A stretch of DNA of 64,000 nucleotides from Clostridiales bacterium (GCA_003534295.1 DPDV01000007.1:4127-68126), one strand, 5' to 3'; shown: positions 29,954-31,384, counted from the first letter of the stretch. Notes: generated from the letters alone by a model not told the origin. A program made the numbers and translations.

Positions 29954-31384
29954 TTATAACTCAAAGCCATCGTCTTTTTCTTTATCTTTTTTATCATCAT
30001 AAAATTCTTCCACGTATTCATCCATCTCATCATTAATATGCTTAGTGGCTTTTTCTATTTCTTTTTTATTAAATAGATTGAAACCTTTGAATCTACTTTT
30101 AACTTCTGAATCATATTGTTGCTTAAAATATTTTAAATCTAAACCACTATAATTAAATAATCTTTCAACAATATTTTGAATAAACTCTGGTAATTTTTTT
30201 AATACCTTATTTAAATGATAAATAAGATAATCAGTTTTTTCTTTTAAACTTTTATATTGATTTTCATACTGATAATTTAATCTTTTTAAATCTTCATTTT
30301 CTTCTTTTAATTTTTCATTCTCATCCCAAAGTTGATTTTTAGATTTAATAATAATTTTATTATTAATCTTTTTCTTTTTATCTATTTTATCACTTATATC
30401 ATCTTTATCTTTATTAAGTTTATTTATTTGTTTATTTATAGATTCTTTATTATCTTCTAAATCAGATATTTCATTTTGAAGGTTAGATATTTCTTGCTTA
30501 AGTCCTTTAACTCTTTCATTAAAGAGTTTTCTTTCATATGATGTAATATCTCGATTTTTACCTTTTTGTTTTTCTTTTAATTTAGAATCCATACCATAAG
30601 CAATATTAAATTCATCAATACATCTTTCCCTCATTTTATCTTGAATAATTACTAATGATTCTTTTGTAAAGATAGATGTTTTACCAACTTGTCTTGATAA
30701 ACCAGTTTTACAATTTTCTTTAACAGGAACTCCAACTATATGCATATGAGGAGAGTGTTCATCAAAATGTATAGTAGCATTTGCTATATAAAAGTCTGGA
30801 ACTATTTCTTGTATATCTTCTAGTTGTTGTTCAAATACTTGTGTCATCCCATATTTATATTCTAAACTTTTCTCGTCCCAATATTCCATATTTCCAAGTT
30901 CAATAACTATTTCACACGCAAGATCATGTTTTGTATCATTGGCAATCTTATTAAAGTAGTTATCTATTTTATTTTGTAATACTGGTAAGAAGAATTCATT
31001 AACAACTGAATCATATTCAAATATATCTGATAATAATTCTTTAATTGAATCTTCAATTTCATGATTGATATTATATTTTTCTAGATAGTCCATTAGTGTT
31101 TCCCAATCTCTTGTACTTCTTGTAATTCTATCTAGTTTTAAAGCAATAATCATATTTATTTTTCATTGTTTACCATCTTCAAGCATTCTATCGTATTCTG
31201 GTCTATGATTGCCTGTTTTAGCACTTATTCCAGCGTCAGTATAATATTCTACTATCTTATAACCATTGAACTTACAATAAGCCTCTAATCGTTCTTTTGG
31301 CCCTGGTAAACTAAAACCCTCACGAGCTTGATCTTCGGTTGATACTCTCATATAAATTCCACACAATTTCTTTTCTTCATTCAT
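29954..31384 (-). pseudogene. chimeric serine-recombinase N-terminus (about 100 aa, in-frame TGA at 31161-31163) fused to Mob/Pre (MobV-family) relaxase body
   Basis: [24 protein letters not shown]...EDGKQ-TGA-KINMIIALKLDRITRSTRD is resolvase motif A plus LDRxxRS in one frame. It then continues into ...ATIHFDEHSPHMHIVGVPV, the HxDExxPHxH relaxase motif III. The MobV motif I region is absent. Confidence 0.6.

Follow-up and report, generated by a model that had tools for sequence, protein, structure and literature searches.

Introduction

Tn4451 is the classic integrative mobilisable element (IME) in which a serine recombinase is paired with a MobV relaxase, and its target specificity is low (PMC5704250). 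Decayed remnants of IMEs and of integrative conjugative elements (ICEs) have been catalogued in Firmicutes, including streptococci and Faecalibacterium (PMC5704250, PMC5357655, PMC12084326). Insertion at tRNA gene 3' ends has been attributed to tyrosine integrases, and site-specific elements that use serine recombinases have been described as inserting within genes (PMC5704250, PMC4701971). Here, we analyze a stretch of 64,000 nucleotides from a Clostridiales bacterium (GCA_003534295.1, DPDV01000007.1:4127-68126; hereafter the window), in which a single minus-strand reading frame (31384..29954) joins part of a large serine recombinase gene to part of a MobV relaxase gene. Sequence comparison makes it very probable that this frame is a pseudogene formed by ordinary gene decay, and that it lies in the immobilised remnant of an IME.

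Results

Two Gene Fragments Share One Reading Frame

The frame 31384..29954 comprises 477 codons with one internal stop. It opens with the catalytic domain of a serine recombinase (107 codons, interrupted by a TGA) and then runs without a frameshift into the body of a Mob_Pre/MobV relaxase that has no N-terminus. A preliminary description of the stretch had reported this arrangement, i.e., a resolvase part, an in-frame TGA at 31161-31163 and a relaxase body with an HxDExxPHxH motif in one frame, and both translation and Pfam searches agree with it. The nonsense codon (31161..31163, minus strand) is codon 74, which reads GGA (Gly) in sister alleles. On its 5' side, an open reading frame (ORF) of 73 aa (31164..31384, minus strand) comprises codons 1-73 of the catalytic domain, matches positions 3-60 of the Resolvase profile PF00239 (E = 3e-13) and keeps the nucleophile Ser15 in YMRVSTEDQ; it lies at 96% nucleotide identity to positions 7971-8291 of L013, an intact relative described below. 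Codons 75-107 (KINMIIALKLDRITRS...YNIN; 31064..31160, minus strand) follow the stop and end at deletion junction 1 (31064|31063), as seen in both Pfam matches and alignment. The 399-aa ORF behind the stop (31153..29957) carries on the Resolvase profile with its first 30 aa (positions 66-95), and its residues 59-194 match positions 55-187 of the 196 in the Mob_Pre profile PF01076 (E = 1.9e-12).

The relaxase part comprises codons 100-437 and the stop codon (29954..30970, minus strand; Pfam; 95.7% nucleotide identity to L013 10298-11311). It scores 47.9 bits against a Mob_Pre cut-off of 25.5 bits and retains both the metal-binding motif III HxDExxPHxH (HFDEHSPHMH at 30769..30740) and the C-terminal coiled coil; the first ~54 positions of the Mob_Pre profile are absent from the chimera in the window. 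By these scores, the domain matches of the chimera are far beyond what chance would produce. Between the two recognizable parts lie 31 residues (HEIEDS...LQN; 30971..31063, minus strand), which are recombinase codons 320-350 from just after the zinc ribbon (95% identity to L013 8928-9031). This segment (31063..30971) had been overlooked in the first reading. It ends at fusion junction 2, a microhomology AAAATAGATAA (K-I-D-N; 30960..30970, minus strand) that was located by overlapping high-scoring segment pairs and a three-way alignment.

The region upstream of the recombinase gene is also retained (31385..31598, minus strand; 96% identity to L013 7757-7970). Within it lie a ribosome-binding site (AAAGGAG) and a promoter-like element (TTGACA-17-TATTAT; 31573..31545; scan score 11/12). 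No Shine-Dalgarno sequence precedes the ATG at 31153, where the 399-aa ORF begins. The exact 399-aa ORF is recorded on 652 public contigs and the 73-aa ORF on 898. At NCBI, the two stand as proteins of a metagenome-assembled genome (HCF64957.1 and HCF64958.1, the latter being the 73-aa ORF), both labelled as hypothetical; another source names the 73-aa ORF a site-specific DNA recombinase.

Alignment to an Intact Relative Reveals Two Deletions

A protein search returned three kinds of relative, namely intact relaxases, a 476-aa chimera and a series of shorter chimeras. The intact relaxases have 437-441 aa, are 85-96% identical over the shared part and start with N-termini (MELSYSLHLGND...VNHHNLR...) that are absent from the window, and the 476-aa relative equals the conceptual read-through of the window's frame with Gly in place of the TGA. 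Contigs L013 and L014, from a pig-gut metagenome, encode the intact relaxase in the ancestral layout: a tRNA-Gly(tcc) gene is followed by an ORF of 94 aa, one of 236 aa on the opposite strand, the recombinase gene (612 aa), 190 nt of spacer and the relaxase gene (437 aa), which converges with the gene for a repeat protein of 325 aa. In L013, the stretch 6612-13512 shows all the features of an intact IME, with an integrase, a relaxase, a candidate origin of transfer (oriT), no type IV secretion system genes and CTCCA repeats at both ends. Its recombinase is composed of the domains Resolvase (residues 10-156), Recombinase (PF07508, 178-266) and Zn_ribbon (PF13408, 280-329) according to Pfam; it covers positions 3-144 of the Resolvase profile, of which the window keeps positions 3-95 of 145, split by the TGA.

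Apart from two gaps, the window follows L013 collinearly, with 94-96% of the nucleotides identical. In the nucleotide alignment, window 32760..32349 corresponds to L013 6605-7013, 31598..31064 to 7757-8291, 31063..30960 to 8928-9031, and 30970..28930 to 10298-12338. The first gap within the chimera spans 636 bp, is in frame and covers recombinase codons 108-319. The second, of 1277 bp, opens at recombinase codon ~351 and closes at relaxase codon 100; its two sides overlap in the 11-nt microhomology AAAATAgATAA. The proposal that the two genes were fused by deletion is thereby borne out by the alignment to L013, and also by the sister alleles below, with the correction that there were two deletions (636 bp and 1277 bp) and not one. 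Likewise, the resolvase origin of the first part holds for the catalytic domain, but its source is the 612-aa large serine recombinase and not a small resolvase.

In 48 loci fetched via the relaxase, a full-length recombinase gene (44-100% identical to that of L013) lies directly upstream of a separate relaxase gene. The preliminary description had considered that the TGA might vanish on re-sequencing and that a resolvase-like N-terminus on a relaxase might prove to be a conserved intact family. Neither was seen: the ORFs that flank the TGA recur on 898 and 652 contigs, and the two genes are full length and separate in the 48 related loci. According to the protein search, all chimeric proteins with both Pfam domains belong to one locus lineage.

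The Remnant Probably Lacks Recombination, Nicking and Transfer Functions

The intact relaxase is a divergent member of MobV, which passes the Pfam cut-off, falls below the NCBIfam MobV cut-off and shares 31-36% of its residues with the closest relaxases from plasmids. A recent plasmid origin found no support, as a sensitive blastn search of the region against 72,556 plasmids gave no match and the proteins are only 31-36% identical to relaxases of small plasmids. MobM (PDB 4lvi) is the sole relative with a solved structure, and its residues 26-177 align with the stretch 62-225 in the intact relaxase. The HHNLR at residues 49-53 of the 437-aa protein is the counterpart of HNER in MobM, which contains the catalytic His22, and it lies inside the 99 codons that were deleted. 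Motif I (HxxR) with its catalytic His was accordingly not found in the relaxase part of the window, as had been noted before. On the recombinase side, the window copy contains no complete Resolvase catalytic domain with helix E, only the part around Ser15, and neither the Recombinase domain (PF07508) nor the zinc ribbon (PF13408), both removed together with codons 108-319. The C-terminal part of the recombinase is gone from the remnant as well.

Furthermore, a perfect hairpin ATATCTTGTCnnnGACAAGATAT recurs without any change upstream of the relaxase gene in 40 of the loci fetched. It lies within a non-coding block of ~130 nt (L013 9860-10000), which contains the hairpins CTAAGGTggtaaACCTTAG and ATATCTTGTCtctGACAAGATAT and is 95% identical across elements whose relaxases are down to 53% identical to the chimera. 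Because this block is more conserved than the genes and is placed where MobV plasmids keep their oriT, we infer that it is a candidate oriT. It falls inside the deleted 1277 bp. No copy of it was detected in the window, neither of the hairpin at up to 3 mismatches nor of any part longer than 12 nt in a blastn-short search, so that the suggestion of an oriT/RSA-like site upstream of the relaxase did not hold for any part of the window.

The right end of the element could not be recovered either. The right-end motif ...GTTTCAAATTATCTTATCTATCGCTCCA that is seen in L013, L038 and L056 was not found in the window, and homology to L013 stops at 28930 beside a degraded IS110, which sits where the right part of the element would be expected. 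To judge from these comparisons, the left end (32753) is the sole part needed for excision or transfer that remains. The set of an integrase, a relaxase, an oriT and two att ends, which marks an intact IME, is hence incomplete in the window copy.

Sister Alleles Suggest the Order of Events

Sister strains share the chromosomal neighbours of the locus, i.e., a Fic gene, dCMP deaminase and BipA on one side and the IS110 with an AbiA fragment on the other. Four of them (L001-L004) carry the chimera of the window with one difference in 1431 nt, GGA versus TGA at codon 74. Another four (L005-L008) keep the recombinase segment that the window lost, lack the equivalent of L013 8073-8243 and have an additional frameshift. 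Fusion junction 2 is common to all eight. Other alleles carry different lesions: the 505-aa allele is close to the primary fusion and frameshifted near its end, the 419-aa allele lacks the residues right after the His motif (57-aa deletion), the 386-aa allele has a 90-aa deletion within its relaxase part that takes out a good share of the coiled coil, and the 410-aa allele starts at Met67. No point substitution separates the window from L001-L004 over the full chimera or from L005-L008 over the relaxase half; only disruptive changes do. Since the sister strains share junction 2 but differ in their secondary lesions, the alleles indicate that the fusion came first and that decay then proceeded independently in each lineage. 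Differences that are disruptive only look like relaxed selection over a short time.

From these data, the following course of events can be proposed. The ancestor, as judged from intact relatives, would have been an IME of ~7 kb that had integrated into the chromosome behind the CCA of a tRNA-Gly gene, with a small ORF, an accessory ORF, the large serine recombinase, the candidate oriT, the MobV relaxase and the repeat protein. The lesions themselves are seen in the alignments. In a first step, the 1277-bp deletion at the short matches (AAAATAgATAA) joined recombinase codon ~351 to relaxase codon 100, taking out the C-terminal part of the recombinase, the candidate oriT and the N-terminus of the relaxase at once. 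The 636-bp deletion of recombinase codons 108-319, with the helix-E part, the Recombinase domain and the zinc ribbon, followed later and in this lineage only, and a single G>T substitution (codon 74, GGA to TGA) was the third step. The right end was also lost, with the degraded IS110 now in its place. Going by the known protein families, the product should be unable to bind or recombine att sites or to nick oriT, and the remnant, which has no oriT to nick, would be fixed in the chromosome. It would then simply be inherited within a prevalent gut species with a small genome.

Two further fusions were found in other species. In L072 (10007-11770), which adjoins tRNA Thr-cgt, recombinase residue ~222 is joined to relaxase residue ~96 with several frameshifts. 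In L074 (10001-10513), which adjoins tRNA Gly-tcc, a 170-aa ORF links recombinase residue ~135 with the final 35 residues of the relaxase, with the junction in an EIE(R/K) microhomology. Deletions across the short spacer between the two co-oriented genes are a recurrent death route for these elements.

The Parent Family Is Found Directly after tRNA Genes

In all 21 loci inspected, the element starts at the base after the tRNA CCA and in the same orientation; examples are L009, L013, L021, L027, L031, L034, L038, L049, L056, L063 and L064. Target tRNAs comprise Gly-tcc, Gly-gcc, Cys, His and Thr, in loose agreement with the recombinase clades. The conserved left end of the family reads T[AT][AG][GT]GAAAT...TCGAACTTTT, right ends finish in ...CGCTCCA or similar, and the direct repeats have only 5-8 nt. 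Joining the right end to the left end gives a reconstructed attP of the L013 type (...TCTTATCTATCGCTCCA|TAAGGAAATACGC...). In the L013 element, the one element that was scanned, no tyrosine integrase was found, and the large serine recombinase is its only recombinase gene. The family was also seen in Massilimicrobiota timonensis, and a limited literature search yielded no description of it.

We tentatively propose, as a reading that may well be right but falls short of even chances, that the parent belongs to an undescribed and widespread family of mobilisable elements (~5-10 kb) of uncultured gut Bacilli, whose recombinase would integrate exactly after the 3' CCA of tRNA genes, with clades that use Gly, Cys, His or Thr tRNAs. 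Should experiments confirm such targeting, it would add to the range of targets known for serine integrases and could provide integrases with a conserved tRNA end as their natural attB. In this respect, the parent family is of more use than the chimera itself.

The Remnant Is One of Four Units in a Tandem Island

The 3' CCA end of a tRNA-Gly(tcc) gene (34262..34335, minus strand; ARAGORN) is the insertion point of a tandem island of 19.7 kb (34261..14566), which is bounded on its other side by a second, convergent tRNA-Gly(tcc) gene (14312-14385, plus strand). An empty site is represented by L101, where the two convergent tRNA-Gly(tcc) genes are 170 bp apart, and the island 14566-34261 is hence strain-variable. 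Five GCTCCA motifs on the minus strand, at 34267-34262 (the tRNA 3' end), 32759-32754, 25565-25560, 21855-21850 and 14565-14560, bound four tandem units. Repeated unit ends are of two kinds, R1 (34268-33988, 26486-26351 and 21856-21585) and R2 (32878-32752, 25676-25596 and 14684-14558). The remnant is the second of the four units, none of which contains an intact recombinase.

The left end of the remnant (32726..32760, minus strand) consists of TGCTCCA (32760..32754), a copy of the tRNA-Gly 3' end, followed by TAAGGAAATAC and the terminator-like hairpin GCTCGAACTTTTCGAGC with a T-run (32742..32726). The sequence TGCTCCA|TAAGGAAATACGCTCGAACTTTTCGAGC is identical to that after the tRNA-Gly CCA in L038, L056 and L074, and L013 differs only further downstream. 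Two terminator-like hairpins (32726-32742 and 32690-32714, minus strand) directly follow the copy of the tRNA end, so that the tRNA gene would receive a new terminator from an element inserted behind it.

Next to the left end lies a small conserved ORF of ~92-114 aa (MVNIIKQE...; 32335..32679, minus strand), with 94% nucleotide identity to the L013 segment 6605-7013. In intact elements, no other gene stands between it and the tRNA; it has homologues in L072 and L074 and gave no Pfam match. A 248-aa accessory ORF (31597..32343, plus strand), likewise without a Pfam match, takes the place of a 236/241-aa gene in relatives, as seen from synteny with L001-L008, L013 and L094. On the other side of the chimera, a 328-aa protein with about four 75-aa repeats is encoded at 28950..29936 (plus strand). 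The preliminary description had mentioned a protein with a fourfold repeat and a frameshifted IS110 transposase nearby, and both were recovered. Tandem Repeats Finder (TRF) gives a period of 225 nt and ~3.8 copies for the repeat gene (28950-29936); Pfam returned only sub-threshold or fragmentary matches and no convincing family. This gene is convergent with the relaxase gene, contiguous with it in L013-L016 at 96% nucleotide identity and also in sister strains, and its product is by this synteny a cargo or accessory protein of the remnant's element. The transposase gene (27805..28669, minus strand; Pfam DEDD_Tnp_IS110 and Transposase_20) is frameshifted over its first 16 codons and, relative to the intact copy of 395 aa in L004, has lost 315 bp (codons ~190-290), so that it is no intact DEDD transposase of ~340-400 aa.

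Regarding the remaining neighbours, a 216-aa ORF (27004-27654, plus strand) matches only the C-terminal third of AbiA (positions 408-614/615; HEPN_AbiA_CTD) and represents a defence gene that was truncated or else a HEPN fragment that stands alone. The third island unit starts with a 39-codon N-terminal recombinase fragment (25344-25460, minus strand) that is 67% identical to the L013 recombinase. A distant resolvase-like gene (8-586, minus strand), 29% identical over residues 9-192, extends almost to the left edge of the window, stopping a few bases short of it. Between the tRNA-Gly gene and the IME remnant, a 1.5-kb unit (34261-32761) has element-like ends R1 and R2, no recombinase and, as its sole gene, one for a Fic-domain protein of 331 aa (32979-33974, plus strand).

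Discussion

Decay or Function

Three observations weigh against reading the frame as a pseudogene. Most deletions in the allele series are in frame, which could hint at selection on the frame; the promoter-like site and ribosome-binding site of the recombinase gene survive, and the 73-aa peptide and possibly the product of the 399-aa ORF could be made; and the parts of the chimera show low pairwise dN/dS values against the intact L013 genes (0.07-0.10). We do not accept the in-frame deletions as a signal of selection, as the protein search that found the alleles favours long ORFs, and the argument is further limited by the fact that two junctions lie in microhomologies encoding the same residues. 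The low dN/dS reflects functional lineages before the fusion: because the divergence from L013 predates the fusion, the value is uninformative on later selection, and the chimera alleles themselves differ too little for a dN/dS test.

The alternative that fares best, though still improbable, is domestication, with the fusion or the 399-aa ORF serving as a functional protein, e.g., as a catalytically dead relaxase body that binds the oriT of related elements on their entry and so hinders them, or as a regulator. The retention of the metal-binding HxDExxPHxH and of the whole C-terminal coiled coil would suit such a role, as would the long open frame in several alleles and the surviving promoter-like site upstream. 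However, the alleles of a single species carry at least six different disruptive lesions, among them a nonsense codon, two different internal recombinase deletions, frameshifts and the 57-aa and 90-aa deletions, and L001-L008 differ from the window copy by no point substitution. The missing Shine-Dalgarno sequence at the ATG at 31153 speaks against translation of the 399-aa ORF as a domesticated gene, and the independent fusions in other species (L072 and L074) are frameshifted or cut to 170 aa.

Still less credible is that the locus is a degraded member of the Tn4451/Tn4453 family (TnpX plus TnpZ), which the preliminary description had called to mind. The likeness holds for the functional class, as both pair a large serine recombinase with a Mob/Pre relaxase, and the catalytic domain of TnpX (PDB 2mhc) is detectably similar (E = 1.5e-7). 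This match is nevertheless weaker than those to TP901-1 integrase or to an unnamed resolvase-family protein (both E ~ 3e-20), and in NCBIfam the top matches, CcrB and XisF, both score far under the cut-off. Tn4451 has further genes between tnpX and tnpZ, whereas here nothing but the candidate oriT region lies between the recombinase gene and the relaxase gene downstream of it. The target also differs, with insertion exactly after tRNA CCA ends in the parent family and low target specificity in Tn4451 (PMC5704250). With gene order and target site different and sequence similarity distant, membership in the Tn4451 family is not supported.

That the TGA is recoded, as Trp or Gly in an alternative code, as selenocysteine or by programmed read-through, and that the full 476-aa chimera is made, has hardly any probability left. 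Public records place some relatives among the Tenericutes or Mollicutes, and the genome, from an uncultured gut member of the Bacillota, is small (~1.4 Mb) with 27% GC, which would be in keeping with an alternative code. Yet the full-length genes for BipA (605 aa) and Lon (798 aa) in the window end in TGA, Trp is encoded by TGG (66 codons in a check of 38 long ORFs under table 11), no tRNA with a UCA anticodon was detected in the window by ARAGORN, and the GGA of sister alleles makes the codon a simple G>T substitution. Even a read-through protein would be without the essential domains. The TGA is, on this evidence, a genuine stop codon in the source genome, and because the exact ORFs stand on 652 and 898 contigs, the allele is real and not a read error. 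An assembly or sequencing artefact, whether a mis-join or a wrong base, is just as implausible, for although the source is seemingly known from metagenome assemblies only, the same junctions occur in independent assemblies from many studies and assemblers, and some of the 652 and 898 contigs with the exact ORFs measure 0.5-1.4 Mb.

We therefore suggest that annotations list the chimera as a pseudogene or a remnant of an IME and not as a new bifunctional recombinase-relaxase. Read as decay, the locus is a clean example of how an integrated element becomes fixed, with one microhomology deletion followed by independent lesions in sister strains.

Comparison with Known Systems

Among serine recombinases, the intact homologue resembles TP901-1 Int, CcrB and XisF in its composition of Resolvase, Recombinase and Zn-ribbon domains, with a match to the TP901-1 Int catalytic domain at E = 4e-20. 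In contrast, the window copy comprises only codons 1-107 and 320-350, and the scores for NCBIfam equivalogs are far below cut-off. The relaxase shares the HxDExxPHxH metal site with MobM of pMV158, the MOBV1 prototype, and its intact homologue has HHNLR where MobM has HNER; the match to MobM reaches only E = 5e-4, however, and the window copy is without the catalytic region.

At the level of whole elements, the parent resembles Tn4451/Tn4453 as a mobilisable integrated element with a large serine recombinase, a MobV-type relaxase and an oriT (here a candidate) beside the relaxase gene. It differs from them in its distant sequence, its gene order, the specificity of the parent family for tRNA-CCA ends and the lack of a resistance cargo at this locus. 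The closest parallels to the locus as a whole are the IME and ICE remnants of Firmicutes, with which it shares recombinase and MobV relaxase genes, a tandem (accretion) array at a tRNA gene, mobility pseudogenes and partly lost ends. What sets it apart from them is that two mobility genes are welded into one frame and that the stepwise decay can be read from sister alleles.

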